From Pseudomonadota bacterium (lineage in GTDB: Bacteria; Pseudomonadota; Gammaproteobacteria; Steroidobacterales; Woeseiaceae): a stretch of DNA of 64,000 bases. The stretch is taken from contig JBCBNU010000008.1 of NCBI GenBank assembly GCA_039821645.1, forward strand, positions 1,576 to 65,575, read 5' to 3'. Below the pieces are notes generated by a model. The model did no database searches and was not told the origin of the DNA. It worked only from the letters and a program-made list of their open reading frames with translations. Position 1 is the stretch's first letter; the number at the start of each line of letters is the position of its first letter. Shown piece by piece: positions 1,105-52,552 of the stretch. Made by a program: the position numbers and the translations under genes.

Positions 1105-1164
1105 GTGAAGCGTTCAGGGGTGGATGCGGTGAAACTCCGAGGGAAAGAAACCCCGGGAGCAGTC

Positions 1165-7042: not shown

Positions 7043-7183
7043 GCGTCATTGCAGCCAAATTAACCTCAACACAGTCTATCGAGCAGCGACTTGACATAGC
7101 GTGCGAAAGATCACATTGCGAAACATGTGTCTGAAGCATTTTTTTGTTAGCTTTCAGGCCTTTCTCATCGACAGGCAACCCTA

Positions 7184-8824
7184 ATGGCTGATCGCTCCGG
7201 CTTCATTGCGGGCGGGACATCACTTGCGGAGACGCAGGCGGAATACCTCGAAAAGCTGCTGGCACGAAACGCCCAAACCGTGTTCGGACGCCGACATAGC
7301 TTCAGCGACGTCGTCGCCGGCGGTGCGTATGCGGATGTGCCGTTTATGCGCTACGACGCCGTCGCAGGCTTCGAGGATGGCAGCTATTGGCCGGACGCGT
7401 CGAACTACACCACCGATCGCATCAGTGCGTGGTTCCTGACCAGCGGCTCGTCGAGCACACCAAAACGGATACCGGTGACCAGCAGTCTCGTTCGCGAAAA
7501 AGCGGGTGCATTCTCGTTGTTCTGGGACGCGATCTATGCCGACCACCCGGGACTGCGCACCGGCAAATTCATCGCCAACTTTGGCGACAGCGGACACAGC
7601 GCACGCAACCAGAACAACGTGTTGGAGGTTTCCGAAACCACCTTCTGGAACCAGCGCATGCAAGGTTTCCAGGCAAGCGACCGCTGGCCGATTCCGCGTC
7701 AGATCACGGCGATCGAATCGCCTGAGTGGCGCTACTACGCGGCGGCCCGGTTAGCACTACAAGGTGAGCTGCACGCAATGATGGGGCTAAACCCATCGAC
7801 GCTGCTCAAGTTTTGTGAGGTGCTCACAACCCACGGCGATGCACTTGCTGCAGGACTCAAGCACGGCAATTGGGGCGTAGCAGCGCTGGATGACGCATCG
7901 TTGCCCGAAAAACTCACCAGCCGTTTGGCCACATCTTCCGAAGCGGCAAGCCGACTGATCACCGCGATCAGTAGCACAGGCAAAACGCAGCTGCCCGACA
8001 TCTGGCCAACACTCGAACTGATGATCTGCTGGCAGTCCGCACTGGTCGGCCCGTATCTGAACCTGCTGCGCGAACACTCGGGCGGCGTTGCTTATCGCGA
8101 CTACATCACTCAGTCGAGCGAATGCATCATGGCTATCCCGATGGTCGACAACGATTGCGGCGGACTGCTCGCCTACCAGACGCACTACTACGAGTTCATC
8201 CCTGAGTCCGAAACCGAGGCGACCCACCCTCGCACGCTCGGCGCACACGAGCTGGAGCAGGATGCGCGCTATGAACTGGTCGTCACTACCGGAGGTGGTC
8301 TCTACCGCTATCGCACCGCCGACTGCGTGCAGGTCGTCGGTTTCGACAACGGCATTCCGCATTTGAGTTTCCAATATCGACTCGGGCGCACGTCGAGCAT
8401 CACCGGCGAGAAACTCACCGAGGCGCAGGTGCTCGATGCCCTTCGTACGATGACCGGTCCATCCGCATTCCACCGTCAGGATTTGATTGTGCATCCGCGT
8501 ACCGGGGAACGACCGCACTACGCGTTGTTAAGTGCGGGCAGCAATGTCACCGAAGGCACAACCGATGAGGACCTCAGTGCGCTCGCCAACGCTTTTCACG
8601 ATGCGCTGTGTGCCTCCAACGGTGAATACGCGGATAAGTGCGCATCGCTGCGACTCGGCAAACCGAGTGTGGTCATCGTGACCGACGAAGACATCGCTGC
8701 GCTACACCGAAAACTACGCGCAAGCCACGTCGGCGACGACCAGTACAAGCCCGGCGTCCTGCGACGCGAGCATGATCTTGATGCCAGCATGACCGTCTTG
8801 CGCGAAGCCCATGCAGATACGTAG
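7184..8824 (+). CDS. GH3-family adenylate-forming acyl-acid amido synthetase
   Basis: The motif FLTSGSSSTPKRIPVT matches the GH3 (T/S)SGT(T/S)xxxxKxIP adenylation motif. The 546-aa length and overall layout are typical of bacterial GH3 homologues. Confidence 0.8.
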   Translation: MADRSGFIAGGTSLAETQAEYLEKLLARNAQTVFGRRHSFSDVVAGGAYADVPFMRYDAVAGFEDGSYWPDASNYTTDRISAWFLTSGSSSTPKRIPVTSSLVREKAGAFSLFWDAIYADHPGLRTGKFIANFGDSGHSARNQNNVLEVSETTFWNQRMQGFQASDRWPIPRQITAIESPEWRYYAAARLALQGELHAMMGLNPSTLLKFCEVLTTHGDALAAGLKHGNWGVAALDDASLPEKLTSRLATSSEAASRLITAISSTGKTQLPDIWPTLELMICWQSALVGPYLNLLREHSGGVAYRDYITQSSECIMAIPMVDNDCGGLLAYQTHYYEFIPESETEATHPRTLGAHELEQDARYELVVTTGGGLYRYRTADCVQVVGFDNGIPHLSFQYRLGRTSSITGEKLTEAQVLDALRTMTGPSAFHRQDLIVHPRTGERPHYALLSAGSNVTEGTTDEDLSALANAFHDALCASNGEYADKCASLRLGKPSVVIVTDEDIAALHRKLRASHVGDDQYKPGVLRREHDLDASMTVLREAHADT

Positions 8825-9914
8825 CATCACGCTGAACCGGGCGCGTATCCCGTTTCGCCAAGCGTTCAGCCACGCCGCAGCGAAACGTGCGGAAAGCGAT
8901 GTGATTCATGTGGCGATCACCGATGATTCGGGTCACACCGGTTTCGGCGAGATTCAGGCACGCCCGTATGTCACCGGCGAGGACAACGACGCGGTGTTCG
9001 AGCGCACGGCACCGGCACTCGCAGAGCAACTGCTCAACGTCACACTGACCGATCGTGCGAGCGTCGAGCACTGGCTTGCAACGCGCGCCGATCGCACGTC
9101 ACAACCCGCCTGCGTGGGCGGCTTTGATCTCGCGCTACATGACCTCTTGGATTTGAACGGTCTGCTCGACTGGTCTAATGCACTCGGTCCCGCTCGCACG
9201 CGACCCATCGGCAAGTGCATCACCATTGGCGACGATCAGGACGACAAGGCACTGATCAAACAGGCGCGCTTCGCGCGACTCTCGGGTTGCACAGTGGCCA
9301 AACTGAAAGTCAGCGGGCCAGATGACCTTGAACGTTGCCAAACATTGCGCAAACACCTTGGGGCGGCAATCGCCATCCGCCTCGATGGCAACGGGCAGAT
9401 GACGCTCGATGGCGCGACCGAATTGCTGACTCGGGCAGCAGACCTCGACCTTCAGTCTTTAGAAGAACCGTTTGATGCCAAGGCGACGGACGTGGATGAG
9501 CGCTTGCGCACACTTCATGCTGAGACGGGTGTCGCATTAGTCGCGGATGAGTCCGCCTGCACAGCGGCAGATGTCGAGCGCTGCGCGGAACAATCAACCT
9601 ACCAGATCATCAACGCGCGCGTGGGCAAGTGCGGCGGCATTACCGGCGTGCGCGATGTGGTCGATGCTGCCCGCAAGCACGGGCTTGGGCTCGTGTGTGG
9701 GACGATGGTGGGCGAGAGTGCAGTATTGCTTCGCTACAGCAAAAAATTATTGCATCATTGCGATGCGCTGGATTACGTCGAGGGCATCGACCAAAACAAG
9801 ACGTTGTTGGCAGACGAGGTGATCGTTGCATGCGAGGATGCTGCGTTGAGTCACTTCCACTGGCAGCAGGACAAGCGCGAGCTATTCACGGTGGGGACCA
9901 GGAATTTCGGATAA
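8811..9914 (+). CDS. Enolase-superfamily enzyme, MLE subgroup (OSBS / N-acyl-amino-acid racemase / dipeptide epimerase-like)
   Basis: The KxK motif is in VAKLKVSG. The metal ligands are in IRLDGNG, SLEEP and VADES. The second catalytic Lys is in NARVGKCGG. The start overlaps the GH3 gene by 14 nt. Confidence 0.8.
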   Translation: MQIRSITLNRARIPFRQAFSHAAAKRAESDVIHVAITDDSGHTGFGEIQARPYVTGEDNDAVFERTAPALAEQLLNVTLTDRASVEHWLATRADRTSQPACVGGFDLALHDLLDLNGLLDWSNALGPARTRPIGKCITIGDDQDDKALIKQARFARLSGCTVAKLKVSGPDDLERCQTLRKHLGAAIAIRLDGNGQMTLDGATELLTRAADLDLQSLEEPFDAKATDVDERLRTLHAETGVALVADESACTAADVERCAEQSTYQIINARVGKCGGITGVRDVVDAARKHGLGLVCGTMVGESAVLLRYSKKLLHHCDALDYVEGIDQNKTLLADEVIVACEDAALSHFHWQQDKRELFTVGTRNFG

Positions 9915-9934
9915 TTGAATCAGGAGCACTATCC

Positions 9935-10171
9935 ATGGCTGAGTCCAAACAAGAAAAAATCCAGGCGTTCATCGCGACTCTGAACCCTGCTGCGGCAGAC
10001 GGTCTCGATCCGGACGCCAACCTGCTGCAGGACGAAATCGTTGACAGCGTCGCCATGATGGATGTCATCGTGTGGCTGGAAGAGACTTTCGATATCTCGA
10101 TCGATCCTGATGACCTGACGCCGGAGAATTTCGGCACGGTCAACAGCATCGTCGCCTACCTCGACCGCTAG
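9935..10171 (+). CDS. Acyl/peptidyl carrier protein
   Basis: This is a 78-aa acidic protein with a phosphopantetheine-site-like LLQDEIVDSVAMMDVIVWLEE. The ATG at 9935 has AGGAG 8 nt upstream. The track ORF from 9629 is an out-of-context N-terminal extension. Confidence 0.8.
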   Translation: MAESKQEKIQAFIATLNPAAADGLDPDANLLQDEIVDSVAMMDVIVWLEETFDISIDPDDLTPENFGTVNSIVAYLDR

Positions 10172-10177
10172 AACACC

Positions 10178-11680
10178 ATGCGCCTGGAACAGGCGTTTGC
10201 CCGGATTGCTACCGAACGCGACGAGCACCTCGCGGTGTCCGTCGTGGGTGGTGGTTCGCTCACCTATGGCGAGCTGCATGCGCGCGCGACGCACTACGCC
10301 GCTGCACTGCAGGCATCGGGCATCGTTGAGGGAGACCGTGTCGGCATCGTCTCACGTCACAACGCGGAGGCGATTGCATTGTTCTGGGGGGTCATGACCG
10401 CCGGGGCCATCGTCGTGTGGATGAACGATGATGCCAAAGGCAAAGACCTGCCTGCGGTGTGTGCGAGCGCCGATCCGAAACTGATCGTGGTTCAGGGCGA
10501 GAAGCAGCAGCGGCTGTTCGCCAACAACGATGAGATGTACGAACGCGTGATGGAGCTCGAAGTGTTGGCCGGTATGGCCGTGCTGCCGCCCGAGCCGATT
10601 ACCGGTGACGAAAACGCGCCTGCGGTCATCGTTTACACCTCGGGTAGTAGCGGTCGGCCAAAAGGCGTGTGTCTTTCGCACAAGAACCTCTACACCGTCG
10701 ATCGTTCGGTGATCGAACACATGCCGATCACGCCCGACGACATTTACCTCATGGTGGTGCCGTTGCATTACGTCCACGGCATCATGCAGCTGACCGTGCA
10801 CCTGCTTGCCGGCGCAACGCTGCACTTCCACGATAGCTTCCTGTTTCCGGCACAGGTCGTCGATGCACTCGTCAACTTGCGCTGCACCGGTTTCTCCGGC
10901 GTCCCGTTTCACTTCAATGCGCTGATGACGCGCGGCAGCCTGCTTGATCGGGAGCTGCCGGATCTTCGCTGGGTCACGGTGACGGGGGGCAAACTTCCGG
11001 CCGATGCGATCCTCACCATTTCGGATCGCTTCCCGGAACTCGAATTTCATATCGCCTATGGGCAGACCGAGTGCGCACCGCGTGCCACCGCACTCAAGCC
11101 CGACCGTATTCGGCGCAAACCGGATTCGGTCGGCAGCCCCATCCCGAACGTAAACGTCGAGATCATCGGCAACGACAACACCCCAGTGCCGCAAGGTCAG
11201 AAAGGCGAAGTCGTTGTCTCTGGCGACAACATCATGCTCGGTTATTGGAACGATCCGGAAACCACCGCAGAAGCAATCGACGATCAGGGACGACTGCGCA
11301 CGGGCGACATCGGTTATTTCGATGACGAAGGGGATCTGTTCCTCGTCGGCCGCCGCTCAGCGATGATCAAGTCGGCGGGCGAGCGCATTGTGCCCGAGGA
11401 GATCGAACGTGTTCTGGATGCGCACCCTGCCGTGATGGAGTCTGTGGTCATCGGTGTCGCCGATGACATGTTAGGCCAACGCGTCGTCGCCCACGTTCGC
11501 GTCGAGGCGCAAGCGAGTCTCGACGATGCGCTCGGCGCTGAACTGCGCACCCATTGCCTGCGCACCATTCCCCTGCCGCGTGCACCGCGAGAGTTCCACC
11601 TGTGCCGGGACTTTCCGCGCAAAGCCAACGGCAAGCCGGACCGCGTTGCGCTCGCCAGCCTCGGAGCCGAAAACGCATGA
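10178..11680 (+). CDS. AMP-dependent synthetase/ligase (class I adenylate-forming enzyme)
   Basis: The A3 motif is IVYTSGSSGRPKGV. Also present are YGQTE, TGDIGYFDDEGDLFLVGR and a terminal K (PRKANGKPDR). Confidence 0.9.
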   Translation: MRLEQAFARIATERDEHLAVSVVGGGSLTYGELHARATHYAAALQASGIVEGDRVGIVSRHNAEAIALFWGVMTAGAIVVWMNDDAKGKDLPAVCASADPKLIVVQGEKQQRLFANNDEMYERVMELEVLAGMAVLPPEPITGDENAPAVIVYTSGSSGRPKGVCLSHKNLYTVDRSVIEHMPITPDDIYLMVVPLHYVHGIMQLTVHLLAGATLHFHDSFLFPAQVVDALVNLRCTGFSGVPFHFNALMTRGSLLDRELPDLRWVTVTGGKLPADAILTISDRFPELEFHIAYGQTECAPRATALKPDRIRRKPDSVGSPIPNVNVEIIGNDNTPVPQGQKGEVVVSGDNIMLGYWNDPETTAEAIDDQGRLRTGDIGYFDDEGDLFLVGRRSAMIKSAGERIVPEEIERVLDAHPAVMESVVIGVADDMLGQRVVAHVRVEAQASLDDALGAELRTHCLRTIPLPRAPREFHLCRDFPRKANGKPDRVALASLGAENA

Positions 11681-13038
11681 CCGATCATTCCACCCGTGAT
11701 CTTCGCGAGTTCCTCGAATTCGCTGAGTCCAAGGGCAAGTCCGCGTGGCTACAAATCGACAAACCAATCTCGCCCAAATTTATGACGACCGCGGTGGTCA
11801 CGGGTCTTGCGCGCAAGTTGCGCAGCCCGGTGATTCGCTTCAACGACATTGAAGGCAGCGGCCTGCCGACGGTCACCAATATTTGCGCATCGTTGGATCG
11901 GGTCGCGCGCAGTGCCGGTATGACTGCGAATGATCTGAACGAGCGTCTCGTCGGTGCGATGTCGGCGGGTATTAAACCCGTGGTCCTCGGTCGCAAAGAC
12001 ACACCTGCGCAACAAGTCGTTCGTGACGCCGATGCCTTCAGCCTTCACGAATTGCCAGCGCTCTACTACACCGACACACAGGACGCGCCCTATCTGACAT
12101 CCGCGCTTGTCGTCGGTCGTGATCCCGACACTGGCGCACACAACCTCAGCTTCCACCGACTAATGATCGCCGACGATCACACCTGCGCGATCTACATGAC
12201 ACCCGGCGGACACCTCGATCAGATCTGGCACAAGTACAGTGCCCGTGGCGAACCCACACCGTTAGCAGCGGTCGTTGGCAACCACCCGTTGTGGTGCTAC
12301 GGCGCGTTGATCGCCGGTGCGTTGGAACACGAGGACTACGAGGTCGTCAGTGGATTACTCGACGCACCACTCGCGCTCACGCGTTGCTTATCGCACCCCG
12401 AGCTTCAAGTGCCTGCACTGGCCGAGATGATTTTTGAGGGTGTTATCGAACCTGCTGAGACCCTGCAGGAAGGCCCGTTCGGTGAGTTCTTGGGCTACGT
12501 TGCTGACAAGGCGGCACGACCGGTAGTGCGATTTACCAAGCTGACGCATCGCGAGCAACCGATCTACCAGGACATCGTCGCGGGCCAGACCGAACACGCC
12601 ACGATGTCGAGTGTGAGTCTGCGTGCCCGTTTAAATCGCGACTATATGCAGGACGAACCTGCGATCCGCGATTTCTGGTTGCCTGCGCCGATGACCATCT
12701 TCCTGTCAGTGGAGGAACACGCTGAGGACTTCGACGCTCAAGCGTTCATGGAGCAGTTGCTCACTAAAGAGGCGTATCTCAAACAGGCGATCGCGTTCGA
12801 CGCGGATGTCGATCTGCGCAAGCAAGCGAGTGTGCAGATGGCGCTTGCTTGCTTCACACAACCGGGGCGCGATGTGACGATCTATACCGACCAGAACGGT
12901 AACGGCGTGGATCCGTCAGAAACCGACGGGCGCACGTCCAAGATTGCTATCGACGCACGCTCGCGCATCCATGCGGTGCGTAATCTCTTGCCGGAGAGTG
13001 TCGAGACCGAGTTTGATCTCAACGATTGGATTCGCTGA
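11677..13038 (+). CDS. UbiD-family (prFMN-dependent) decarboxylase
   Basis: The UbiD-like N-terminus is DLREFLEFAESKGKSAWLQIDKPISPKFMTTAV and the length is 453 aa. The ATG at 11677 overlaps the ligase stop (ATGA). The track start at 11554 would add 41 Arg/Pro-rich residues. Confidence 0.8.
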   Translation: MTDHSTRDLREFLEFAESKGKSAWLQIDKPISPKFMTTAVVTGLARKLRSPVIRFNDIEGSGLPTVTNICASLDRVARSAGMTANDLNERLVGAMSAGIKPVVLGRKDTPAQQVVRDADAFSLHELPALYYTDTQDAPYLTSALVVGRDPDTGAHNLSFHRLMIADDHTCAIYMTPGGHLDQIWHKYSARGEPTPLAAVVGNHPLWCYGALIAGALEHEDYEVVSGLLDAPLALTRCLSHPELQVPALAEMIFEGVIEPAETLQEGPFGEFLGYVADKAARPVVRFTKLTHREQPIYQDIVAGQTEHATMSSVSLRARLNRDYMQDEPAIRDFWLPAPMTIFLSVEEHAEDFDAQAFMEQLLTKEAYLKQAIAFDADVDLRKQASVQMALACFTQPGRDVTIYTDQNGNGVDPSETDGRTSKIAIDARSRIHAVRNLLPESVETEFDLNDWIR

Positions 13039-13815
13039 TCAGTTCGCGGTGCGACCGCCGTCGACGTTCAGGGTCTGCCCGGTAATCGAACGACTCTCGT
13101 CCGTCGCCAGATAATTCACCAATGAGGCAACGTCCTCGGGCGTCACAAGGCGGCCTGTTGGTGTGTCGTCGACCAGGTCCTGCTCGTGTTTTTCAATGCT
13201 CACGCCTTTGATCCTGGCGCGCGCACCTTGGGTCTGCGCAAACAACTTGGTCTTCACGTAGCCCGGTTGCACGGCATTCACGGTGATGCCGAGTGCCGCC
13301 ACTTCCAAGGCCAGCGAGCGCACCATGCCGGCGACCCCCGCTTTGGAAGCCGCGTAGATCGCGTTGAAAGGTGCGCCGACCTCGGCAGAAATCGAACCGA
13401 CGTGGATGATGCGCCCGAAGCGTGCACGAATCATCGGGCGCAACGCAGCGCGGGAGATATTGAACGCACCGAGCGTGTTGACGCGCACTACCCGCTCCCA
13501 ATCCGCATCTTTACCGAGCAGCACAGGTGCGATGTAACTCACGCCTGCGCAGTTGACCACCGCGCTCAAGCCACGTTGGTCGGTGGCAACCTGCTTCACC
13601 ACGTCGCGGCATTCATCGCCATCATCGATCAGCAGTTTTACTGGATGGAGCGTGCGCTCGGCGTTGGCGAGCGCTTCACACGCCTGCTCTGCCTGCTCGA
13701 TCGTACGCCCGGAGATCACCACACGGTGGCCCGCATCAGCCAATCGTTCACAGATCGAAGCCCCAATGTCTCCGGTGCCCCCGACGACCAGCACCGCGCC
13801 ATCACTCATCCCCAT
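13039..13815 (-). CDS. Short-chain dehydrogenase/reductase (FabG-like)
   Basis: The cofactor motif is VVGGTGDIGASI, NCAG is present, and the catalytic YAASKAGV motif is present. Confidence 0.9.
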   Translation of the reverse strand: MGMSDGAVLVVGGTGDIGASICERLADAGHRVVISGRTIEQAEQACEALANAERTLHPVKLLIDDGDECRDVVKQVATDQRGLSAVVNCAGVSYIAPVLLGKDADWERVVRVNTLGAFNISRAALRPMIRARFGRIIHVGSISAEVGAPFNAIYAASKAGVAGMVRSLALEVAALGITVNAVQPGYVKTKLFAQTQGARARIKGVSIEKHEQDLVDDTPTGRLVTPEDVASLVNYLATDESRSITGQTLNVDGGRTAN

Positions 13816-15527
13816 GGGCTGATCCTGATGTCGTCGGGGTCATCTTCCCAGCCGTTCGCCTCGTTGATCCATTCACGACGCACTTCAAGCTCACCGTTGT
13901 TGTGGGTGGCAAACAGATTGGTCAGCCAGTTCGCATCGTCGCGCTCGGGATAGTCGCTGCGATAGTGCGCACCACGGCTTTCCTTGCGCATGTCCGCCGC
14001 TCCGATAATCACCTCGGCAACGTCATGCAGATTGCGTTGCTCATAGGCAAGCGCGTAATCGAGCGGTTCGCGAATCGCGAGCTGCTCGTTCAAACGTTGG
14101 CGATCTGCCGCGATGTAGTCGCGTGCCTCGGCAAGCGTCGTTGCATCTTTCTCGACCGTGAGCAGCTTCCACATCGTGTACTGCAACTCACGACGCATCG
14201 TGTCGATATCAACCTGACCCTTCGCTTTTTGGAACGTACGCAGCGCATCAAAATGGGCAAGCGCGTCGTCGTCGGAAATACTGACCTGCGGTCTTGAGCC
14301 GCACTGCTCGCCAGCGAACCGCCCGGCACGCCAACCGAACACTTGTGACCCCCCGAGCATCGTGCCGCCCAGACGATCGGCGCCTTGCCAACCACCGGCC
14401 TCACCGACCGCGTACAAACCCGATACCGTCGACTCGGCGCGCTCATCGATGCGAATGCCACCGTTACTCGAATGGTGATGGATCTGCACCTGAACGAGAT
14501 CGTTCTTGATATCGATGCCGTTGTCGATCATGAAGTTCTCAAACAGCTCGTGCTTAAAGCCCCGCGTTGCGTGTGACAGATCGAGGAACACAGCGTTGTT
14601 CTCGGTGCCCCGCCCTGCCAACACCTCGTTCTTGATCGCGCGATCGATATGCAAAGACGCATCCCGGCAGCTCACAGGCCAGTGCGCCGCCTTGAGGTTG
14701 CAACCTTCGATCATCGAATCCGCATCTGGATAGTAGTCCCGCAGGAACGATTTACCGTGCTTGTTGATCAGGCGATAAGGCTCTTCCATTTCGTAGAGCA
14801 TGACGATCGCCTGTTGCGGCCAGGTGGTCGCCAACCCCTGCTGCATGTACTCCATGTTGAACAGATCGGCGCCTGCACGCGCCGCCATCGCGTAACCGTC
14901 GCCGGTGTTGCCCTGCGGGTTGAAGCTGTAGGTGAACAACTGACCAACGCCGCCGGTCGCGATCACGACCGCACCCGCTTCGACGACAAACGGGTCACCA
15001 TCGTCTGTCACACCCACCGCGCCGATGCAGCGCCCGTTGTCGACCACCAAATCTGTGAAGTTGGCGTGTTCGAGCACTTGCGTGTTCGTGCCTTCGATCA
15101 CTGCTTTTTGCACCGCCACGATCCGGTTGGTCTTCAGATCACTCTTGTGCCCTTCCATCGTCGCAAGCATCTTGCTTTGAAAGCGCATGCCCATCGACTG
15201 CAATCGCTTCACCGCGTCAGACACTTCGTCCACAAAAATCTGGCACAGCGCCGGATCAGCCATGCCCAAACCCGACTGCAGCATATCGGCGTGCACGAGT
15301 TCCGGCGGATTGAAAAAACCACCTTTCGGTCCGACGGTTCGGATCGTCCAGAAATCGCCGATGGGGTTCGAAGTGGCACCGGCGCCGCGCACACCAGGGA
15401 TACCAAATCGCCCTTTGACAGCGAGCATGGTCCGTGCTCCGGCATCGTGTGCCGCGATCGTCGACGCGGTTGCCGCACCGCCACCGCCGATCACCAAAAC
15501 GTCTGTGTTGTAGCGCTGCAATTTCAT
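13806..15527 (-). CDS. FAD-dependent oxidoreductase of the SdhA/FrdA/NadB flavoprotein family
   Basis: The dinucleotide fold is DVLVIGGGGAATASTIAAHDAG. The family signature is ESRGAHYRSDYPERDD. I prefer the ATG at 15527 (MKLQRY), 2 nt downstream of the upstream gene's stop. The track start at 15821 adds 98 non-protein-like residues. Confidence 0.85.
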   Translation of the reverse strand: MKLQRYNTDVLVIGGGGAATASTIAAHDAGARTMLAVKGRFGIPGVRGAGATSNPIGDFWTIRTVGPKGGFFNPPELVHADMLQSGLGMADPALCQIFVDEVSDAVKRLQSMGMRFQSKMLATMEGHKSDLKTNRIVAVQKAVIEGTNTQVLEHANFTDLVVDNGRCIGAVGVTDDGDPFVVEAGAVVIATGGVGQLFTYSFNPQGNTGDGYAMAARAGADLFNMEYMQQGLATTWPQQAIVMLYEMEEPYRLINKHGKSFLRDYYPDADSMIEGCNLKAAHWPVSCRDASLHIDRAIKNEVLAGRGTENNAVFLDLSHATRGFKHELFENFMIDNGIDIKNDLVQVQIHHHSSNGGIRIDERAESTVSGLYAVGEAGGWQGADRLGGTMLGGSQVFGWRAGRFAGEQCGSRPQVSISDDDALAHFDALRTFQKAKGQVDIDTMRRELQYTMWKLLTVEKDATTLAEARDYIAADRQRLNEQLAIREPLDYALAYEQRNLHDVAEVIIGAADMRKESRGAHYRSDYPERDDANWLTNLFATHNNGELEVRREWINEANGWEDDPDDIRISPWG

Positions 15528-15529
15528 AG

Positions 15530-16699
15530 TCACGCTACCGCTGTCACGATGGCTGCGTACTGATCGGGGAAGCTTCCCGAAATCGATTCGATATCCGGCC
15601 AGATTTCGCCTTGCGAGAAGCCCGCCAATTCGAACACCCGCAACCAGTTCTCGGGTGCGAGATAGCAATGCACCGGCCGGTAGTCCTGATTGCGGATCGC
15701 AGCGGTACGGTGATACACCGAGAGGTTCAGTGACAGCTCGCGCGGCGCCATATCGCGCGGCGTCAGTCGAATCCGCTCCGCAAACAGCACACGGCCGCCG
15801 GGCTTCAGAGTCTCTTTGCACGACTTCAGAAACGCGACAATATCTTTTGCTACGTGCGCAGCATTGACCGCGTAGATCAAATCGAAGTCACCCTGCGGCA
15901 CCTTTTGTTCCGACAGTGGATTGTTGAGGTCTGCGAACCGCCAGTCGGTGCTCACGTCCGGGTAGTCGGCGCGGATTTCATGGCGCGTACCCATAATGAA
16001 CTTCGCGCTGATGTCGGTGAAGTGATAGTGCTCGACACGATCGAGTTCGTTCTTGGCAGCAAGATGTTTGAACAGATTGCGAATGCCGTTGCCGGTGCCG
16101 CCGCCGATTTCGAGAATGCGACCTTTCGGCAACAGCATATCGATGGCCTTCGCCCCCATGATACCGTGCACGTTCTGCAATGGGTCGGTGTTAGTCGCGC
16201 GGAACCAGAGCTCCTGAAACTCGGACTCACGACCCGACAGAATCGCGTCGAGAAAATCGGGCTCGTCCTTCAGCGAACGTACCCAATGATCAGCACCGAA
16301 TTGCAGAAACTCGAGGGGTGACACGTATTCATCGCCGAGCGCCGCCATATCCTTTTCGATGCCGGCGATATCGCGCGGTGGTGTCGCTACCGCACCCGTG
16401 TGCTGGAAGCTTGGCGTCCCGTCCGACTCGGTGCGGATGACGAAGTCAAAGCGTGCGCTCAACCGATCCAGCATCGCCTCCAGTGTGATGAACGCAGAAT
16501 CGACATAGCCCAATGACTCGGTCAGAGCTGCCGGCGTCGTCGGCACCGCCAATTCCGTCGTCAGGTTCAATGAGCGGTAAAGGCCGAGCAGATGAAAATC
16601 GAGCGCCTCCTGCAGCAGCGCCGCCCCCTGGATCATTTCCGGAGTGAAGAGATCCTCAACACACCAACGGGTGAAGTCCTGTCTGAGTTGTTCGGTCAC
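15530..16699 (-). CDS. Class I SAM-dependent methyltransferase with an N-terminal helical domain
   Basis: Motif I is ILEIGGGTGNGIRNL and the post-I acidic residue is in HYHFTDIS. About 190 aa precede the Rossmann fold. Confidence 0.85.
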   Translation of the reverse strand: MTEQLRQDFTRWCVEDLFTPEMIQGAALLQEALDFHLLGLYRSLNLTTELAVPTTPAALTESLGYVDSAFITLEAMLDRLSARFDFVIRTESDGTPSFQHTGAVATPPRDIAGIEKDMAALGDEYVSPLEFLQFGADHWVRSLKDEPDFLDAILSGRESEFQELWFRATNTDPLQNVHGIMGAKAIDMLLPKGRILEIGGGTGNGIRNLFKHLAAKNELDRVEHYHFTDISAKFIMGTRHEIRADYPDVSTDWRFADLNNPLSEQKVPQGDFDLIYAVNAAHVAKDIVAFLKSCKETLKPGGRVLFAERIRLTPRDMAPRELSLNLSVYHRTAAIRNQDYRPVHCYLAPENWLRVFELAGFSQGEIWPDIESISGSFPDQYAAIVTAVA

Positions 16700-16741
16700 G
16701 ATTCGATCCTTTTGGTTATTGTTTGGGTTCCCGTGCTGCGA

Positions 16742-17620
16742 TCAGGCGGCCGTTGATCCCATCGCCTGCGCCACTTCGTCGGTCCACGCCGTCACAGCGG
16801 AGATCGTCTCGGGTAGTGCATCAAATTGCACCCCATGCTCACCGGGAACGATGGTATGCGATTTGGGGGTCCCTTTGACGTGACGCCATGCACGCAAATG
16901 CTTTTCGTTGTCGGACAGCCGATCCTGTTCGGCCAACACCATGAGCGTCGGCAAGCGCAGTTTTGCCCAACGCGGGCCGAGCATGCGGTTCATATCAACC
17001 AGGCACTGATTGAAACGCGGTGAAACCTCACACGTTCGAAGTGGATCCGGAATGATGAAGTTCTCATAGGCAGGGCCGCGAGTGAACCGATCGATCGGCA
17101 CGTGCGGCTCGTATTGCGCCTCGCCGGAATCCCCAACCACTAAATCGGCACCGCCGATGTCATCTGCCGGAAAAATCGACGGGGCGATCATCAGAAACGA
17201 CGCAACCCCTGCGGCATCGCGCGACAACGCATTGAGCGCGTACGTCGCCCCCCAGCAAAACCCGCCGAGGTGGGTGGTCAGTGTGTCGGAGGCATAGTGG
17301 TGTCGCACCGCATCAACATCGTCGAGCAGCTGCGCGGTCGATGGCGCATCGCCACTCGCCGACGTGCTGAGCCCGGCTCCGCGACGGTCCACCGCAAGCA
17401 CAGCAACACCTTGCTCCGCCAAGCCCTGGCCTAAAGTCTCGAGCCACCCGGAATGACTGACCACGCCGTGTAGCAAGATAATCTGATGTGCATATGGGCG
17501 ATTCGGCACATAGCGCCGCACCGGCAATGATTCACCATCAGAGGAAATGACAGATTCGAGCAGCTTCTCGGTCATGCGCTGTAGTCTACCCAAAACCGCG
17601 ATGGTTCGATCCCGATGCAT
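16742..17620 (-). CDS. Alpha/beta-fold hydrolase with a Cys in the nucleophile elbow (GFCWG)
   Basis: The oxyanion region is ILLHGVVSHSGW. The nucleophile elbow reads HLGGFCWGATYAL (GxCxG, as in dienelactone hydrolase and PhaC, not GxSxG). The C-terminus contains PGEHG. Confidence 0.75.
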   Translation of the reverse strand: MHRDRTIAVLGRLQRMTEKLLESVISSDGESLPVRRYVPNRPYAHQIILLHGVVSHSGWLETLGQGLAEQGVAVLAVDRRGAGLSTSASGDAPSTAQLLDDVDAVRHHYASDTLTTHLGGFCWGATYALNALSRDAAGVASFLMIAPSIFPADDIGGADLVVGDSGEAQYEPHVPIDRFTRGPAYENFIIPDPLRTCEVSPRFNQCLVDMNRMLGPRWAKLRLPTLMVLAEQDRLSDNEKHLRAWRHVKGTPKSHTIVPGEHGVQFDALPETISAVTAWTDEVAQAMGSTAA

Positions 17621-17686
17621 CCACTCTCAAGAACGTGACGAAGTTCACATAACTCGAATCACGTGGATCACCTTGGGAGCACCGTC

Positions 17687-18907
17687 ATGTCGGCGCCTAT
17701 CGATTTCGCCCAATCGCCTGCATTTGACCTGGCTGACCCGGATTTCCACACCTATGGGGATGTGGACCAGGTATTCCGCGACCTGCGCAGAACAGAGCCC
17801 GTCTATTGGCAGCGGGAAAAAGACGGTCCCGGGTTTTGGTCGATCACCAAGTACGACGACATCGTCGCAGTATCGAAAAATCCCAAGATCTTCAGCTCCG
17901 ATCTGGAGCGCGGTGGATTCCACATCGAGGACAGCCGCACCTTCGCCGTGAATACCGGCACCAATATGATCACCAGTGACCCGCCGCAACATAGCGCTTA
18001 CCGCAAGGCGGTCGCGCCAGCGTTTGCGCCTACCCGCGTGCGCGAGCTGGCAGCCACCATTCAAAACTCTGTGGCTGAAGTCATGCAGGCATTGGCGTCT
18101 CGCAGCACTTTCGATTTCGTTGATCTCGTATCGGCACCCGTCGCGATCGATGTCCTCGCACGCTTGCTAGGGGCCAGCAGGAACAAGCAAGACCTGATTC
18201 GCTGGTCCGATGAATTGGTGGGCTATGACGATCCAACGGTGCGCTCTTCGGAAGCGGAAATCACCGAGAGCCTGCGACGCATGTCCATGTTCGCCCTCGG
18301 GCTGCGGTTGAAGTACTCCAAGGCGCCAGAAGACACGATGATCTCGATGCTGGTAAACAGCAAGACGGATGCTGGTAAGCCGATGAACGTCAGCGATTTC
18401 ATCGCGACCTTTATCCTGCTGATCGTCGCGGGTAACGAGACCTCTCGGAATGCGATCTCCGGCGGCATGCTCGCCCTGTTCGAAAACGCGCCGCAAAAGC
18501 GATTGCTCAGCGAGCATCCCGAACTTGCCAATGCCGCCGCCAACGAGATCGTGCGCTGGGTGACACCCGTGATCTACATGCGACGCACCGCGACCGAAGA
18601 CGTCACGTTGCGAAACACACGGATCAAAGCGGGCGACAAAGTTGTGCTTTGGTACACCTCGGGTAATAGAGATGAGGATACCTTTGAGCGCCCTTACGAG
18701 TTTGATATCACCCGCCAGAAAGCAGCGCATCTCGGGTTCGGTAGCGGTACGCACTATTGCGTCGGTTCACGGGTCGCACGGATGCAGATCGGCATCCTGT
18801 TTACGTCGCTGTTGCAGCGCTACCCGAATATTCAACTCGCAGGTGACGTCGAGAAGCTGCGCTCCAACTTCATCAACGGCGTCAAACGGATGCCGGTCAG
18901 TGTGTGA
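17687..18907 (+). CDS. Cytochrome P450
   Basis: The haem-binding loop is HLGFGSGTHYCVGSRVA. The I-helix is LLIVAGNETSRNAI and the ExxR motif is EIVRW. The ATG at 17687 has GGGAG 7 nt upstream. Confidence 0.9.
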   Translation: MSAPIDFAQSPAFDLADPDFHTYGDVDQVFRDLRRTEPVYWQREKDGPGFWSITKYDDIVAVSKNPKIFSSDLERGGFHIEDSRTFAVNTGTNMITSDPPQHSAYRKAVAPAFAPTRVRELAATIQNSVAEVMQALASRSTFDFVDLVSAPVAIDVLARLLGASRNKQDLIRWSDELVGYDDPTVRSSEAEITESLRRMSMFALGLRLKYSKAPEDTMISMLVNSKTDAGKPMNVSDFIATFILLIVAGNETSRNAISGGMLALFENAPQKRLLSEHPELANAAANEIVRWVTPVIYMRRTATEDVTLRNTRIKAGDKVVLWYTSGNRDEDTFERPYEFDITRQKAAHLGFGSGTHYCVGSRVARMQIGILFTSLLQRYPNIQLAGDVEKLRSNFINGVKRMPVSV

Positions 18908-18916
18908 ATCGGTGGT

Positions 18917-19999
18917 CTAGACGTCGTTATCGATGAACGAGAGCACGACCTGATCGACCGACGCGCCTTCAACGTGTGACAGTCCCACCGTGACGAAGGC
19001 ACTGAACGAATCGCGCACCCGAAAATGCGCTCGCGCCAGTACAACGGCAGCCGCCGACTGGTGATCGGGAATCGTAAACGTCAGAGAGCGCCGTCTGCCT
19101 GCATGGCGTCGTGTCAGTTCATCAACGAGCGCGCGCAGCGCATCGTCGGTGGTGTAAGCCATGTCTCCCACGATGAGCGCATTGTTCACGCCCGAGCGAA
19201 GTGCGGCGAAGGCTGCCGCGCACCCATGCTGGTCTTCGACGGCAACGAGGTCATAGTGGTGGTTTGGGCTTTTCTTGATTCGCCAATCGACAAACTGCGC
19301 ATCGCGCCTGCCGATCTGCCAACCACCCGCGACCAGTGATTGCCAAAGTCCGTCCATGAATTCTGGTGTGTAATCGACTACTTGATATCCGCTGCGCCGG
19401 AACGAGGCCCGGAGCGCATAGAAGCTGCGCGATACGAGATTCAATGCGCCACCCACTGGAGTTGCGAGCGCACCTGGCAGCCTCGATTTCAGATAGGCGG
19501 TAAAGTCGAGCGGCAGCACATAAATATCGAGCGAGTAACCGAGTTTGTGGCCTCCGAAGGAACGAACCTTGCCCGAAAGCGGGTTTGGAAACCCGAAAAT
19601 GAAATCGGAGCGTTCCCGTGCGTACTGCAGAAAGTCTTTCTGGAACTTGAGCGCCGGGCCAAGGCTACGGTGCTCCGGTTCGACGGCAAAATCGCCGAAC
19701 ACTGACCCGATTGCACGCTCACCCGCCACAACAAATTCGCGCGGGCTGAGGCACACCACACCAACGTTCCGCTGCTCCGGCTTGTAACTCAGGAATAGCA
19801 CTGTGCCTGCGCCCGCCGGATTATCCCGGTAATACCAATCCAGCTTCTCGCGTTGCGGTGGATTATCGCCAGGCAGAAAACGCCACAGACGCAGGATATC
19901 GTCAGCATCACGCTCAAGATCGCCCTCTTGAATCTCGTAGAGGTCGCTGACTTTCGCGCTACGTGGCTTTTCTGCGGACTGCTGCTGCACGGCACTCAC
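18917..19999 (-). CDS. GNAT-like acyltransferase (two-domain, 360 aa)
   Basis: An acetyl-CoA motif-A-like segment is VEPEHRSLGPALKF (R-x-x-G-x-A). The assignment rests on this motif and the protein size only. Confidence 0.55.
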   Translation of the reverse strand: MSAVQQQSAEKPRSAKVSDLYEIQEGDLERDADDILRLWRFLPGDNPPQREKLDWYYRDNPAGAGTVLFLSYKPEQRNVGVVCLSPREFVVAGERAIGSVFGDFAVEPEHRSLGPALKFQKDFLQYARERSDFIFGFPNPLSGKVRSFGGHKLGYSLDIYVLPLDFTAYLKSRLPGALATPVGGALNLVSRSFYALRASFRRSGYQVVDYTPEFMDGLWQSLVAGGWQIGRRDAQFVDWRIKKSPNHHYDLVAVEDQHGCAAAFAALRSGVNNALIVGDMAYTTDDALRALVDELTRRHAGRRRSLTFTIPDHQSAAAVVLARAHFRVRDSFSAFVTVGLSHVEGASVDQVVLSFIDNDV

Positions 20000-20583
20000 T
20001 GGTTACCTAAACCCTCCCAGGGTTCGTAGAGTTCATTATTGACGCCCGCAAGGCTCATGACGCGACCGACGGTCTCGCGCACCATCGTCTCGATATCTGG
20101 CGGGTTCGAATAAAACGCCGGCACCGGAGGGTAAACAATACCACCCATCTCTGTCACCGCAGCCATGTTACGAATGTGTGCAAGATTCAGCGGCGTCTCG
20201 CGGGCCAGTAAAATGACGCGTCGCCGCTCCTTCAGCATCACATCGGCGGAACGCGTAATCAGCGACCCGCCGATGCCCTGTCCGATGCAGCCGAGTGTTT
20301 TCATGGAGCATGGCGCGACGATCATCGCGGTCGACGGAAAAGAGCCGCTCGCAATCGAAGCACCGACGTTGCGATCATCGTGCACCACATCGGCCGTTGC
20401 CTCGAGCTCGGATTTCTTCAGACCGGTCTCGGTGGTAACGGTGAGGTAACCCGCGGCGGATACGATCAGATGCGATTGCACGTTGGGCAGTTCGCGCAGC
20501 GCTCGAAGTAGGGTTACGCCATAGACGGATCCGGACGCACCGGAGATTCCGACAATGATCTTATGTTCACGCGGACTGGACAT
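19996..20583 (-). CDS. ubiX: UbiX/Pad1-family flavin prenyltransferase (prFMN synthase)
   Basis: The N-terminus is IIVGISGASGSVYGVTLLRAL, followed by MIVAPCSMKTLGCI. The 195-aa length is typical. Confidence 0.9.
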   Translation of the reverse strand: MSSPREHKIIVGISGASGSVYGVTLLRALRELPNVQSHLIVSAAGYLTVTTETGLKKSELEATADVVHDDRNVGASIASGSFPSTAMIVAPCSMKTLGCIGQGIGGSLITRSADVMLKERRRVILLARETPLNLAHIRNMAAVTEMGGIVYPPVPAFYSNPPDIETMVRETVGRVMSLAGVNNELYEPWEGLGNQ

Positions 20584-23945: not shown

Positions 23946-23976
23946 GAGTCAGGCGGGTTAATCGCCCGCCTGACTC
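23946..23976. terminator. Perfect 12-bp GC-rich hairpin between convergent genes (GAGTCAGGCGGG-N7-CCCGCCTGACTC)
   Basis: Read directly from the sequence. The right arm encodes the last 6 codons (ESQAGD) of gene 23958-25964 and the loop contains its stop codon. There is no U-tract on either side. Confidence 0.45.
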
Positions 23977-30599: not shown

Positions 30600-31010
30600 A
30601 TGAGTAAAGTCATCGAAGCCACCTACGCCATCGGGGATCTCGCCGACGAGTTTGGAGTGACCACGCGCACACTGCGTTTTTATGAGGAAAAGGGTTTTCT
30701 GAAACCCGAACGCCGAGGCCGCGTGCGCTATTTCAGTCAGGCGGATCGCGTGCGCCTGCGTCTGCTGCTGCGTGGCAAACGTCTCGGTTTATCGTTGGAG
30801 GAGAGCGCGGAAATCGTCGATCTCTACCAAACGCCCGAGGGCTCAAAGCGTCAGTTGAAAGTGCTGTTGGCAAAGCTCGCCGAGCGACGCGAACAACTGC
30901 TCGAACAAGCGAGAGACCTTGAGGCAACGCTCGATGAACTGGAGCGCGTAGAACAGCAGTGTGGCGACGCGCTCGCACGGCTGGAATCGCACGGCGGGAC
31001 AGCACGATGA
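30600..31010 (+). CDS. liuR: MerR-family transcriptional regulator (LiuR-like)
   Basis: The HTH is [32 protein letters not shown], followed by a C-terminal coiled coil. It is the first gene of the leucine-catabolic operon. Confidence 0.8.
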
Positions 31011-32614: not shown

Positions 32615-32616
32615 TC

Positions 32617-34599: not shown

Positions 34600-34607
34600 G
34601 AACTCCA

Positions 34608-35762: not shown

Positions 35763-35771
35763 GAGAAAGCG

Positions 35772-49165: not shown

Positions 49166-49264
49166 TGTATGTCGCTTCAGGCAGCGCCTCGGCGAGTGTG
49201 ATCACAATCGCTGTTCCCGTTTTTCGCAGATGCTAGCATTCACGTGGCGCAGGTAGGAGCACAA

Positions 49265-52461: not shown

Positions 52462-52552
52462 GGCAGTTGAAAAGGCATAACCGTCGAAAGGCGGCGACGC
52501 AAAGCTACCGGTCTACAGGCGAGAGCCCACGACGGCGGAGTTACCAAACTCG
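52462..52552 (+). promoter_or_regulatory. c-di-GMP-I (GEMM) riboswitch aptamer in the 5' leader of lipoprotein gene 52638-53978
   Basis: The sequence is AAAAGGCAUAACCGUCGAAAGGCGGCGACGCAAAGCUACCGGUCUACAGGCGAGAGCCCACGACGGCGGAGUUACCAAAC. It matches conserved GEMM-I blocks as recalled from V. cholerae Vc2 (GGCAAACC..GAAAG..GGACGCAAAGCC.CCGG.CUA....GGUAGCGGGGUUACCGA). The first hairpin is CCGUC-GAAA-GGCGG, closed by a GNRA loop. The second arm is capped by GGC-GAGA-GCC. GGCAUAAC can pair with GUUACC to close the junction. Confidence 0.7.

Follow-up and report, generated by a model that had tools for sequence, protein, structure and literature searches.

The window analysed here, a 64,000-nucleotide stretch of contig JBCBNU010000008.1 from a Woeseiaceae bacterium (GCA_039821645.1), carries at positions 7184-20583 twelve real genes that very likely form part of a genuine, widespread and uncharacterised bacterial pathway. 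The region is best explained as one copy of a horizontally shared biosynthetic pathway, whose conserved unit is a core of eight genes supplemented by lineage-specific tailoring genes. The core encodes a short-chain dehydrogenase/reductase (SDR), an alpha/beta-hydrolase with a cysteine nucleophile, a GH3-family amido synthetase, an enolase-like protein, an acyl carrier protein (ACP), an AMP-binding ligase, a UbiD-family enzyme and a flavoprotein.

These genes stay together in a census of gene neighbourhoods, for which five cluster UbiDs were aligned and a metagenome collection was scanned, giving 80 loci whose stop-to-stop open reading frames (ORFs) were all scored against the twelve window proteins by single-query phmmer. 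Forty loci have a UbiD of at least ~165 bits (at least ~33% identity; close loci) and 40 a weaker one (distant loci). Where usable flank was available, at least one partner gene was present at every close locus (32/32) and at none of 36 distant loci. The ligase was found at all 26 close loci with at least 1.5 kb of upstream sequence, against 0 of 30 distant ones; GH3 together with the enolase-like gene at 10/10 against 0/16 where at least 5 kb lay upstream; and the flavoprotein, SDR or GH3 at 18/18 against 0/32 where at least 1.8 kb lay downstream. The SDR, hydrolase and ligase belong to promiscuous families and single weak matches could be paralogues, but their fixed positions argue otherwise. 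A scan of genome contigs with a single UbiD gave near relatives only, and distant context was taken from the contig look-up of homologues and the metagenome scan; taxon names are the source annotations of the homologues, and gene context was verified for the cited loci.

The same picture is obtained from the GH3 side, where 209 homologues were found. GH3 genes whose products are 78%, 54%, 43% and 34% identical, in four assemblies with unrelated flanks, are each followed by enolase-like, ACP, ligase and UbiD genes, and the four assemblies also carry the SDR, flavoprotein and hydrolase (shared gene order between unrelated flanks: GCA_038531945, GCA_021773015, GCA_029262195 and JGI 3300077288). 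On soil-type contigs the eight core genes form a single run on the same strand, in the order SDR, hydrolase, GH3, enolase-like, ACP, ligase, UbiD, flavoprotein. In favour of a chance juxtaposition of two convergent operons, the halves of the cluster can separate, L097 having only GNAT, hydrolase, methyltransferase, flavoprotein and SDR genes, and no terminator or promoter signal marks a single unit. Yet co-occurrence is complete on more than 30 independent contigs, among them genomes in which GH3 is 34-54% identical and the flanks are unrelated, and the soil-type runs are continuous; because of this co-occurrence, chance can be discounted almost entirely. An earlier note on this DNA, made from its letters alone, had described a biosynthetic cluster without a polyketide synthase (PKS) ketosynthase or a non-ribosomal peptide synthetase (NRPS) condensation domain, and had allowed that the genes might fail to co-occur; the genes do co-occur across very distant genomes, and the census bears the description out, the cluster being genuine and co-inherited. 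The cluster also appears to be an orphan, as had been claimed: UbiX is the only cluster protein to score above a curated NCBIfam cut-off, and full-text searches of the literature library found no paper on a gene set combining GH3 and UbiD.

The twelve genes, and the intergenic region in front of them, are as follows.

7043-7183, no strand: divergent intergenic region 5' of the GH3 operon, presumed promoter (from the ORF map)
7184-8824, plus strand: GH3-family ATP-dependent acyl-acid amido synthetase (Pfam GH3 N, M and C domains)
8811-9914, plus strand: MR_MLE enolase-superfamily protein (Pfam MR_MLE_C)
9935-10171, plus strand: stand-alone acyl/aryl carrier protein of 78 aa (Pfam PP-binding; Ser in VDSV)
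10178-11680, plus strand: ANL-superfamily AMP-binding ligase (Pfam AMP-binding and AMP-binding_C)
11677-13038, plus strand: UbiD-family (de)carboxylase dependent on prenylated flavin mononucleotide (prFMN) (Pfam UbiD N, core and C domains)
13039-13815, minus strand: classical SDR (Pfam adh_short)
13806-15527, minus strand: soluble SdhA/FrdA/NadB-like flavoprotein (Pfam FAD_binding_2 and Succ_DH_flav_C)
15530-16699, minus strand: S-adenosylmethionine-dependent methyltransferase of 389 aa (Pfam Methyltransf_12 and others)
16742-17620, minus strand: alpha/beta-hydrolase (Pfam Hydrolase_4); the start may be 17572
17663 or 17687 to 18907, plus strand: cytochrome P450 (Pfam p450); the ATG at 17687 is the likelier start
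18917-19999, minus strand: tandem-GNAT-fold acyltransferase of 360 aa (from AlphaFold and Foldseek only)
19996-20583, minus strand: UbiX flavin prenyltransferase (Pfam Flavoprotein; NCBIfam UbiX)

A Pfam family was assigned to eleven of the twelve ORFs and the twelfth, the GNAT, was placed by structure. The families named in the earlier note all hold, including the Cys-type hydrolase and the GNAT (Pfam, NCBIfam and structure), and the ORF map shows the tight packing with overlapping starts and stops that it reported: GH3 and enolase-like genes overlap by 14 nt, ligase and UbiD by 4 nt (ATGA), SDR and flavoprotein by 10 nt, and GNAT and UbiX by 4 nt. UbiD and SDR are convergent with no gap between them, and the P450 is inserted between two minus-strand genes. 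The 66-bp divergent gap noted previously corresponds to 17621-17686, given a hydrolase start at 17620 and the P450 ATG at 17687; orthologue alignment suggests that the hydrolase may start at 17572, which would enlarge it. No ketosynthase or condensation domain was found by Pfam in the twelve ORFs or in the precomputed Pfam lists of related loci, in agreement with the original description. A sigma-70 pattern scan gave no match in 7043-7183 and was not above chance over the region as a whole, promoter and terminator pattern counts were at or below shuffled expectation, and Rfam placed no riboswitch or other element at the cluster in the window or in seven related loci.

The cluster had been presented as a twelve-gene unit, and in this respect the earlier description has to be narrowed, since only eight genes are conserved throughout and the methyltransferase, GNAT, UbiX and P450 are restricted to subsets of loci. 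The methyltransferase and tandem GNAT are limited to a gammaproteobacterial type (L003, L005, L011, L018, L020, L050, L051 and L097); no intact methyltransferase was found at the soil-type loci, L012 having only fragmented methyltransferase-like ORFs. UbiX adjoins the cluster only in the near relatives L006-L010, and at none of the 25 other close loci, as against 17 of 33 distant UbiD loci. The ACP gene is identical, and called at the same position, in L001 and L002. As a strain-level accessory, the P450 is found in the window and, among its relatives, in the more distant L007 and L010 alone. L006, the closest relative at 93-95% nucleotide identity, cleanly lacks the ~1.2 kb of window 17631-18862 (L006 15944-15955); the final ~45 nt of the P450 ORF survive there, a remnant that marks a deletion scar and thus loss of the gene in that strain. 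In the cultured myxobacterium Paraliomyxa miuraensis (L096; GCA_026337845, JAOVZF010000141.1) the order is ligase, UbiD, then P450 and flavoprotein, with a transposase and nSTAND/CHAT/SIR2 defence-type genes inserted between ligase and UbiD; the locus as examined ends before the GH3 side. The Paraliomyxa P450 beside the flavoprotein is only 22% identical to that of the window, so it was recruited independently. Absence from most relatives, deletion in L006 and this low identity together led us to reject the P450 as a core member.

We class the cluster provisionally under carrier-protein-assisted acyl-amino-acid biosynthesis. Within that kind we favour, tentatively and with somewhat less than even confidence, an OlsH-like pathway to an N-acyl amino acid or amino-lipid, the product of which would probably be an amino-lipid-like molecule associated with the envelope or biofilm. 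OlsH, the only characterised bacterial GH3, makes N-acyl-ornithine from a free fatty acid and ATP; its operon also encodes the alpha/beta-hydrolase OlsI, which attaches a second acyl chain from a donor given only as 'acyl-CoA or acyl-ACP', and the methyltransferase OlsG, and there are thousands of bacterial GH3 homologues of unknown specificity (PMC12493201). The window GH3 is a member of the family (PF03321, PF23571 and PF23572; 104.4, 79.4 and 24.5 bits against 23.6) with the nucleotide motifs TSGSSSTPK, YITQSSE and YRYRTAD, and its PDB matches are plant GH3 structures only. It is not OlsH itself, scoring 59.7 bits against NCBIfam NF052613 (cut-off 620; soil orthologue 127, Aeoliella 78), and from its sequence appears to be a distant relative. 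GH3 and the enolase-like gene translationally coupled to it form an irreducible dyad that is kept when the other partners change. In the planctomycete Aeoliella the pair lies beside a relative of the OleD-like 2-alkyl-3-oxoalkanoate reductase and a Ser-type hydrolase, and in L099 it follows a 1134-aa MFS-PlsC-AMP-binding (LplT/PlsC/Aas-like) protein, with three PEP-CTERM proteins nearby. The OlsH-OlsG-OlsI operon of planctomycetes (PMC12493201) resembles the window cluster in uniting a bacterial GH3, an alpha/beta-hydrolase (in the Ols operon an acyltransferase) and a methyltransferase. It differs in that the window hydrolase is Cys-type, its methyltransferase is optional and like PKS C-methyltransferase (C-MT) domains, and all scores are far below cut-offs; the Ols operon, in turn, has no enolase-like, ACP, ligase, UbiD, flavoprotein or SDR genes.

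The enolase-like protein was assigned in the earlier note to the muconate lactonising enzyme (MLE) subgroup of the enolase superfamily. That assignment stands on the KxK motif at the end of strand 2 (K164-x-K166) and the metal ligands D192, E218 and D246, which are invariant and align to those of dipeptide epimerases, the best PDB matches; the second catalytic Lys is absent, so the protein is not a standard racemase or cycloisomerase. At the beta6 position of that Lys (YkfB K268) the window protein has Arg270 in 5 of 5 PDB alignments, and all 32 cluster orthologues have Arg. In an exhaustive HMMER search of 1.84 billion representatives (50% clustering), the best 150 proteins (P0261-P0410) have Arg at this position in 133 cases and Lys in 7. 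Judged by sequence, the 'Arg-beta6' enolase-like proteins are a large distinct subfamily. Replacement of the beta6 Lys makes a two-base 1,1-proton transfer or racemase mechanism unlikely, and a role as N-acyl-amino-acid racemase or dipeptide epimerase is correspondingly weakened; one-base enolisation with beta-elimination, or a syn-dehydration like that of o-succinylbenzoate synthase (OSBS), seems more plausible. The racemases and epimerases of the subgroup (YkfB, the dipeptide epimerases 3q45, 3jva and 3rit, NSAR and OSBS) share the TIM-barrel fold, the KxK motif and the Asp/Glu/Asp ligands with the window protein, and the nearest of them act on the C-terminal residue of N-acylated amino acids, but they lack its invariant Arg in place of the beta6 Lys.

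The enolase-like domain also occurs in gene fusions. In P0295 (L098) it is fused to an ACP that is clearly orthologous to the window ACP, with a GH3 C-terminus as the upstream neighbour; in P0341 and P0368 it is fused to an alpha/beta-hydrolase, and in L099 to a haem-oxygenase-like diiron oxidase (HDO) domain. Such fusions and variants always adjoin acyl-activating genes and often exopolysaccharide (EPS) or PEP-CTERM genes. The gene that follows the L098 fusion (1639-1995) is not the usual ligase, and its N-terminus matches none of the twelve window proteins.

The ligase is presumed to load the carrier protein. Its A4 region, PLHYVHG, is of acyl-CoA-synthetase type and has no equivalent of Asp235 (FDxS, core A4), so that it should activate an acid and not an alpha-amino acid; an amino-acid-activating (NRPS or DltA-like) ligase was rejected on this ground and on its score against TIGR01733 (230.5, cut-off 317.4). 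The best PDB match is an NRPS A domain (LgrA A2), and the protein also resembles aryl/acyl-CoA ligases. Its top NCBIfam matches, both below cut-off, are the fatty-acid ligase PRK06187 (305.4 bits) and TIGR03098 (302.6), the ligase associated with exosortase A; with a cut-off of 592, identity with the latter was rejected.

This near-top match bears on a different pathway, in which an ACP-tethered diacid is a donor for glycan decoration, as in butirosin 4-amino-2-hydroxybutyrate (AHBA) transfer or the exosortase-A module. The ligase would load a dicarboxylic (amino) acid on the ACP through one carboxylate, the enolase-like protein, flavoprotein and UbiD would process the free end, the GNAT or Cys-hydrolase would move the acyl group to an EPS amino sugar, and GH3 would form an extra amide, such as one between an amino acid and a uronic acid. 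The free end of such a diacid would be open to all three carboxylate-dependent enzymes, the enolase-like::ACP fusion agrees with tethering, and a distant tandem-GNAT homologue adjoins ACP, ligase and Asn synthase genes in an EPS locus. The surroundings of the related loci, in soil especially, also speak for it: Poly_export and Pel9A in L012; a PEP-CTERM protein and Polysacc_synt in L014; Asn synthase, LPG_synthase_TM and FkbH in L005; Asn synthase, beta-helix, FemAB-like GNATs and UDP-glucose dehydrogenase in L044, L048 and L042; GT2, YdjC, epimerase and GFO in L049; GH5 in L033; and PGA_cap in L029 and L097. The exosortase-A (PEP-CTERM) gene set TIGR03098-03101 likewise combines a stand-alone ACP and dedicated ligase with alpha/beta-hydrolases, a GNAT/FemAB-type transferase and a decarboxylation, in EPS loci, and the logic of butirosin BtrI/J/K/H is, we presume, similar to that of the window set of ACP, ligase, transferase and decarboxylation. 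On the other hand, the exosortase-A set has a pyridoxal-phosphate-dependent decarboxylase in place of UbiD and a function that is itself unproven, its family cut-offs lie well above the window scores (302 against 592 for TIGR03098), and the hydrolase reaches only 16-24 bits against hydr1_PEP and hydr2_PEP. Glycan genes are missing beside the cluster in the window and in several relatives (L003, L011), the conserved core holds no glycosyltransferase, and the L099 variant suggests lipid acyl transfer (PlsC/Aas). We regard glycan decoration as unlikely, though by no means negligible.

Membership of UbiD in its family is clear, with three Pfam domains of 169, 44 and 32 bits, all above cut-off. N156, R161, H179, E265 and E270 are invariant among five aligned orthologues; by motif and spacing we take them to correspond to N168, R173, H191, E277 and E282 of Fdc1, that is, to the Glu-Arg-Glu network and the metal and phosphate ligands. 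Against the PDB the scores are 199 bits for HmfF (6h6x), 113 for VdcC, 104 for AnInD, 96 for PhdA, 82 for TtnD and ~55 for Fdc1. The NCBIfam subfamily TIGR00148 is narrowly missed (211.6 against 244.85), and identity with VdcC (187.8 against 650), E. coli UbiD (111 against 788), BagN (108 against 1000) and menaquinone decarboxylase (122 against 496) was rejected on their equivalog cut-offs. The UbiX gene encodes a bona fide UbiX (NF004685, 247.4 against 188; TIGR00421, 201.1 against 108.9; CoaBC/HFCD only 14 bits), so that an oxidative decarboxylase of HFCD/LanD type could be rejected for this 'Flavoprotein' gene; the model also resembles VdcB and BagM.

HmfF, with HmfG a 2,5-furandicarboxylate decarboxylase (6h6x, 6h6v), is the best sequence match to the window UbiD. 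Its furoate substrate bears the carboxylate on an sp2 carbon with a heteroatom, as an N-acyl dehydro-amino acid would. HmfF is catabolic and lies in another gene context, and 199 bits denotes the same clade and not the same substrate. A second comparison is with biosynthetic clusters in which UbiD/UbiX pairs make terminal alkenes from alpha,beta-unsaturated acids, as in tautomycetin, 9-methylstreptimidone and triacsin, and in which UbiX need not be clustered with UbiD (PMC11350588, bioRxiv 10.1101/2021.05.12.443849). TtnD/TtnC (tautomycetin), SmdK/SmdJ and Tri10/Tri9 (triacsin) are alike in placing a prFMN decarboxylase and its cofactor synthase in a biosynthetic cluster, where TtnD, SmdK and Tri10 decarboxylate an alpha,beta-unsaturated acid late in the pathway (same sources). 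These clusters are PKS-based and the window cluster is not; its UbiD is nearer HmfF (199) than TtnD (82), UbiX is usually not adjacent in window-type loci, and the unsaturation would derive here from the SdhA-like flavoprotein or an enolase-type lyase, not from a PKS dehydratase or TtnF.

The UbiD scores give some credit to a reading in line with that of the earlier note, a diffusible specialised metabolite built on a (hetero)aromatic acid, in which UbiD makes or trims an aryl acid, which is activated and tethered by an aryl carrier, then undergoes reduction, oxidation or methylation, and is conjugated to an amino acid by GH3, much as in plant GH3 aryl-acid conjugates or petrobactin-type aryl-carrier chemistry. 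The enzymes closest to the window UbiD (HmfF, VdcC and the indole-3-carboxylate and phenazine-1-carboxylate decarboxylases) all act on (hetero)aromatic acids, the aryl carrier AsbD is among the best NCBIfam matches of the ACP, aryl acids are conjugated by plant GH3s, the UbiX likenesses (VdcB, BagM) point the same way, and P450s were recruited independently in two lineages. Set against this, the cluster has no enzyme that forms an aromatic acid (chorismate-utilising enzyme, tyrosine or phenylalanine ammonia-lyase, type III PKS) and no transporter or regulator that is conserved alongside, the other partners of the GH3 and enolase-like pair are lipid-type, and all similarity scores are far below equivalog cut-offs. 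The order of events in that reading, a tethered unsaturated or aromatic acid that is decarboxylated, oxidised, methylated and amide-linked, stays plausible; its aromatic part fares less well, as context and fusions point to acyl-amino-acid chemistry of lipid type with EPS and PEP-CTERM genes and not specifically to an aromatic product. We think an aryl metabolite unlikely, while still giving it some credence.

The pair of UbiD and UbiX, together with a methyltransferase, might also recall quinone or cofactor biosynthesis related to menaquinone or ubiquinone, and there are sub-threshold matches to MenC (82.9 against 200), MenE (242.9 against 330) and MenH (32 against 208, for the L048 hydrolase). 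None of these reaches its cut-off, however; MenB, MenD, MenF and a prenyltransferase are missing, the methyltransferase and UbiX lie outside the conserved core, and GH3, ACP, flavoprotein and GNAT would be left unexplained. True UbiD and menaquinone decarboxylase are poorer matches to the window UbiD than VdcC and HmfF are. With its defining enzymes missing, a Men/Ubi-type pathway was rejected as very improbable.

The flavoprotein is by far the best-conserved cluster gene. Its annotated homologues in Acidobacteriota, Gemmatimonadota, Myxococcota and Alpha- and Gammaproteobacteria are 64-68% identical, and it scores 800-870 bits even in loci where UbiD is only ~36% identical. It falls below all equivalog cut-offs (TfrA, 264 against 718; NadB, 183 against 453). 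Equivalents of NadB Arg290, His351 and Arg386 are kept, that of His244 (FrdA H232) is replaced, and the N-terminus lacks the SHT motif for covalent FAD. These features fit a soluble enzyme acting by oxidation or reduction on a C-C bond adjacent to one carboxylate, the site for a second carboxylate being altered. The SDR, kept in both cluster types, is FabG- or 3-hydroxybutyrate-dehydrogenase-like, and lies close to the cut-off of a FabG subfamily of NCBIfam (217.9 against 222).

The hydrolase has a G-F-C-W-G nucleophile elbow and a Cys122-Asp233-His262 triad. In a 10-sequence alignment the Cys is present in all nine cluster-type orthologues and Ser takes its place in the Aeoliella mini-cluster; GxCWG occurs in 16 of 17 sequences. 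A conserved Cys triad argues for a thioester acyl-enzyme, and for acyl transfer or off-loading from a thioester, and we presume the protein to be an acyl transferase or thioesterase. The PDB sequence search gave no match for it, and identity with OlsI was rejected (NF052614, cut-off 385: no match at E<=0.01; L048 orthologue 18.6 bits).

Since this Cys enzyme stands with an MLE-like protein, the cluster also brings to mind muconate cycloisomerase and dienelactone hydrolase, and hence catabolism of a furanic or aromatic acid (hydroxymethylfurfural- or chlorocatechol-like), with UbiD/UbiX for decarboxylation, the ligase for activation, and the MLE-like cycloisomerase, Cys dienelactone-hydrolase-like enzyme and reductases for the products of ring cleavage. 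HmfF as best PDB match of UbiD, weak PcaD/MenH-type matches of hydrolase orthologues and the likeness of the ligase to aryl/acyl-CoA ligases would agree. We consider it improbable. A dedicated carrier protein, GH3, a PKS-type C-MT-like methyltransferase and a tandem GNAT speak for biosynthesis and not for catabolism, and conservation does not extend to any ring-cleaving dioxygenase, furoyl-CoA dehydrogenase or typical catabolic regulator or transporter. The Lys kept by true MLEs is missing from the enolase-like protein, and the cluster is embedded in EPS loci.

The best PDB matches of the methyltransferase are the PKS C-MT domains of CurJ, PsoF, DisA, AprA (MT2) and LovB. For the 360-aa protein no significant match was found in Pfam, NCBIfam or PDB sequences (weak Acetyltransf_9, E 0.004). 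Its AlphaFold (AF2) model, built with 18 homologues, has a mean predicted confidence (pLDDT) of 88.7, and Foldseek relates it to Eis-like proteins, N-myristoyltransferase and the clavulanate tandem GNAT (E 1e-10 to 1e-13; TM up to 0.61), so that a tandem-GNAT acyltransferase fold is predicted. Homology to the FemAB-like GNATs of the soil loci was rejected, hhalign detecting none; a 375-aa soil-locus protein gave a weak partial match with a probability of 30%.

In the OlsH-like pathway that we favour, GH3 would couple an amino acid to a free carboxylic acid at the expense of ATP, giving an N-acyl amino acid as OlsH does; the acid is probably a fatty or hydroxy-fatty one. The enolase-like protein, flavoprotein and UbiD all require a free carboxylate and would act on the free carboxylate end of this conjugate. 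The enolase-like enzyme would abstract the alpha-proton, its single Lys base probably serving beta-elimination or other one-base chemistry and not racemisation; an alpha,beta-unsaturated acid would arise as the flavoprotein dehydrogenates (or reduces) the C-alpha/C-beta bond; and UbiD would release CO2 to leave a vinyl or enamide group, with UbiX supplying prFMN. The ligase would adenylate a second acyl group and load it on the carrier protein, the SDR possibly working on the carrier-bound intermediate, and its transfer would fall to the Cys-hydrolase, by analogy with the O-acyltransferase OlsI, or to the tandem GNAT in this lineage. The methyltransferase and P450 would be optional tailoring enzymes.

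A precedent for the outcome exists in other N-acyl-amino-acid systems, where unrelated enzymes desaturate N-acyl tyrosines to dehydrotyrosines or, in the case of FeeG/CndG, turn them into enamides by oxidative decarboxylation (PMC12479983, PMC11959600). FeeG and CndG are a precedent for the enamide and not for the enzymes. A passage of PMC7293339, citing Craig et al. 2011, places N-acyl-amino-acid synthase (NAS) genes next to PEP-CTERM/EPS genes, and the same neighbourhood is seen around GH3-UbiD loci. The NAS/FeeG systems are also alike in having a dedicated ACP with an acid-activating enzyme and a decarboxylated or desaturated head. They are non-homologous, with a GNAT-type NAS in place of GH3 and a single flavin oxidase, FeeG, in place of the SdhA-like flavoprotein and UbiD; enamide formation has been seen for FeeG and is postulated for the window cluster. 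A bolder version of the proposal, which we hold to be unlikely, is that the SdhA/NadB-like dehydrogenase and UbiD are a new two-enzyme system for oxidative decarboxylation of a GH3-made N-acyl amino acid to an enamide or vinyl head, that at least five phyla thereby make amino-lipids of the envelope or biofilm, or acyl groups linked to EPS, that form a new class, and that the 'Arg-beta6' enolase carries out a new one-base elimination on a carrier-linked or N-acylated substrate.

Several observations weigh against the OlsH-like pathway. GH3, hydrolase and methyltransferase fall far short of the equivalog cut-offs for OlsH and OlsI, and the methyltransferase was matched by no OlsG-type model. The hydrolase nucleophile is Cys, that of the Aeoliella orthologue being Ser. 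UbiD is nearest to the catabolic heteroaromatic HmfF and to aromatic-acid decarboxylases, and less near TtnD and Fdc1, which decarboxylate aliphatic enoates. Since UbiD enzymes are reversible, the reaction might instead be a carboxylation whose product the ligase traps; the ligase and UbiD genes overlap. The enolase-like::ACP fusion implies that the substrate of the enolase-like enzyme may be carrier-tethered, and in that case a dicarboxylic acyl-ACP is a better candidate than a free N-acyl amino acid. By Pfam of the neighbouring ORFs, no EPS or PEP-CTERM gene lies directly beside the cluster in the window. The order of the steps is, finally, one that we infer.

Other features of the window were noted in passing. 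A c-di-GMP-I riboswitch (52464-52548, plus strand; 74 bits, gathering threshold 35) lies upstream of a He_PIG/Big_9/fn3 surface-protein gene (52638-53978). In L005 (GCA_021773015) a c-di-GMP-I riboswitch (7954-8034, minus strand) and a surface-protein gene are ~2 kb from the GH3 cluster, beside gltX; the syntenic gltX of the window (46595-48010) is 26 kb from the cluster, so the cluster is placed differently relative to this biofilm-type riboswitch unit. Divergent from UbiX is a gene (20703-23936, plus strand) for a predicted 1077-aa lipoprotein (LAAC lipobox-like) with at least 12 PASTA repeats and no kinase or penicillin-binding-protein domain; PASTA-only proteins are unusual in a proteobacterial genome. 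It is followed by an odd bacterial fusion of 668 aa (23958-25964, minus strand), AhpC/TSA-Redoxin with the C-terminal domain of copper type II ascorbate-dependent monooxygenases. A phage-type tyrosine integrase (1105-2259, plus strand) lies ~5 kb upstream of the cluster, with molybdopterin oxidoreductase, ZapG-like, Sel1 and Reelin-repeat genes in between. At 49244-52239 a FemAB-like GNAT (Acetyltransf_6, the family to which the FemAB-like GNATs flanking the soil-contig clusters also belong) adjoins a GINT1_N protein (glucosamine inositolphosphorylceramide transferase domain). The leucine/isovalerate-type catabolic block at 30959-37087 (carboxyltransferase, biotin carboxylase fused to biotin carboxyl carrier protein, acyl-CoA dehydrogenase, HpcH/HpaI-type lyase) is ordinary and unrelated to the cluster.

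The enzyme families of the cluster are all known; their combination, the 'Arg-beta6' enolase branch and the pairing of an SdhA-like flavoprotein with UbiD beside GH3 are undescribed in the literature searched. The cluster provides a second, far more elaborate context for a bacterial GH3 after OlsH (2025), defines a large branch of the enolase superfamily with a changed catalytic residue, and would connect amino-acid conjugates with prFMN/UbiD chemistry, which is of interest in biocatalysis as a route to alkenes and for fixing CO2. It appears to be carried, at least in part, by the cultured P. miuraensis, which makes it experimentally approachable. The eight-gene core is spread over soil Acidobacteriota, Gemmatimonadota and Myxococcota and marine Proteobacteria, often in EPS or PEP-CTERM loci, and given this spread and setting its product may be a common, unseen part of biofilm matrices or outer membranes.

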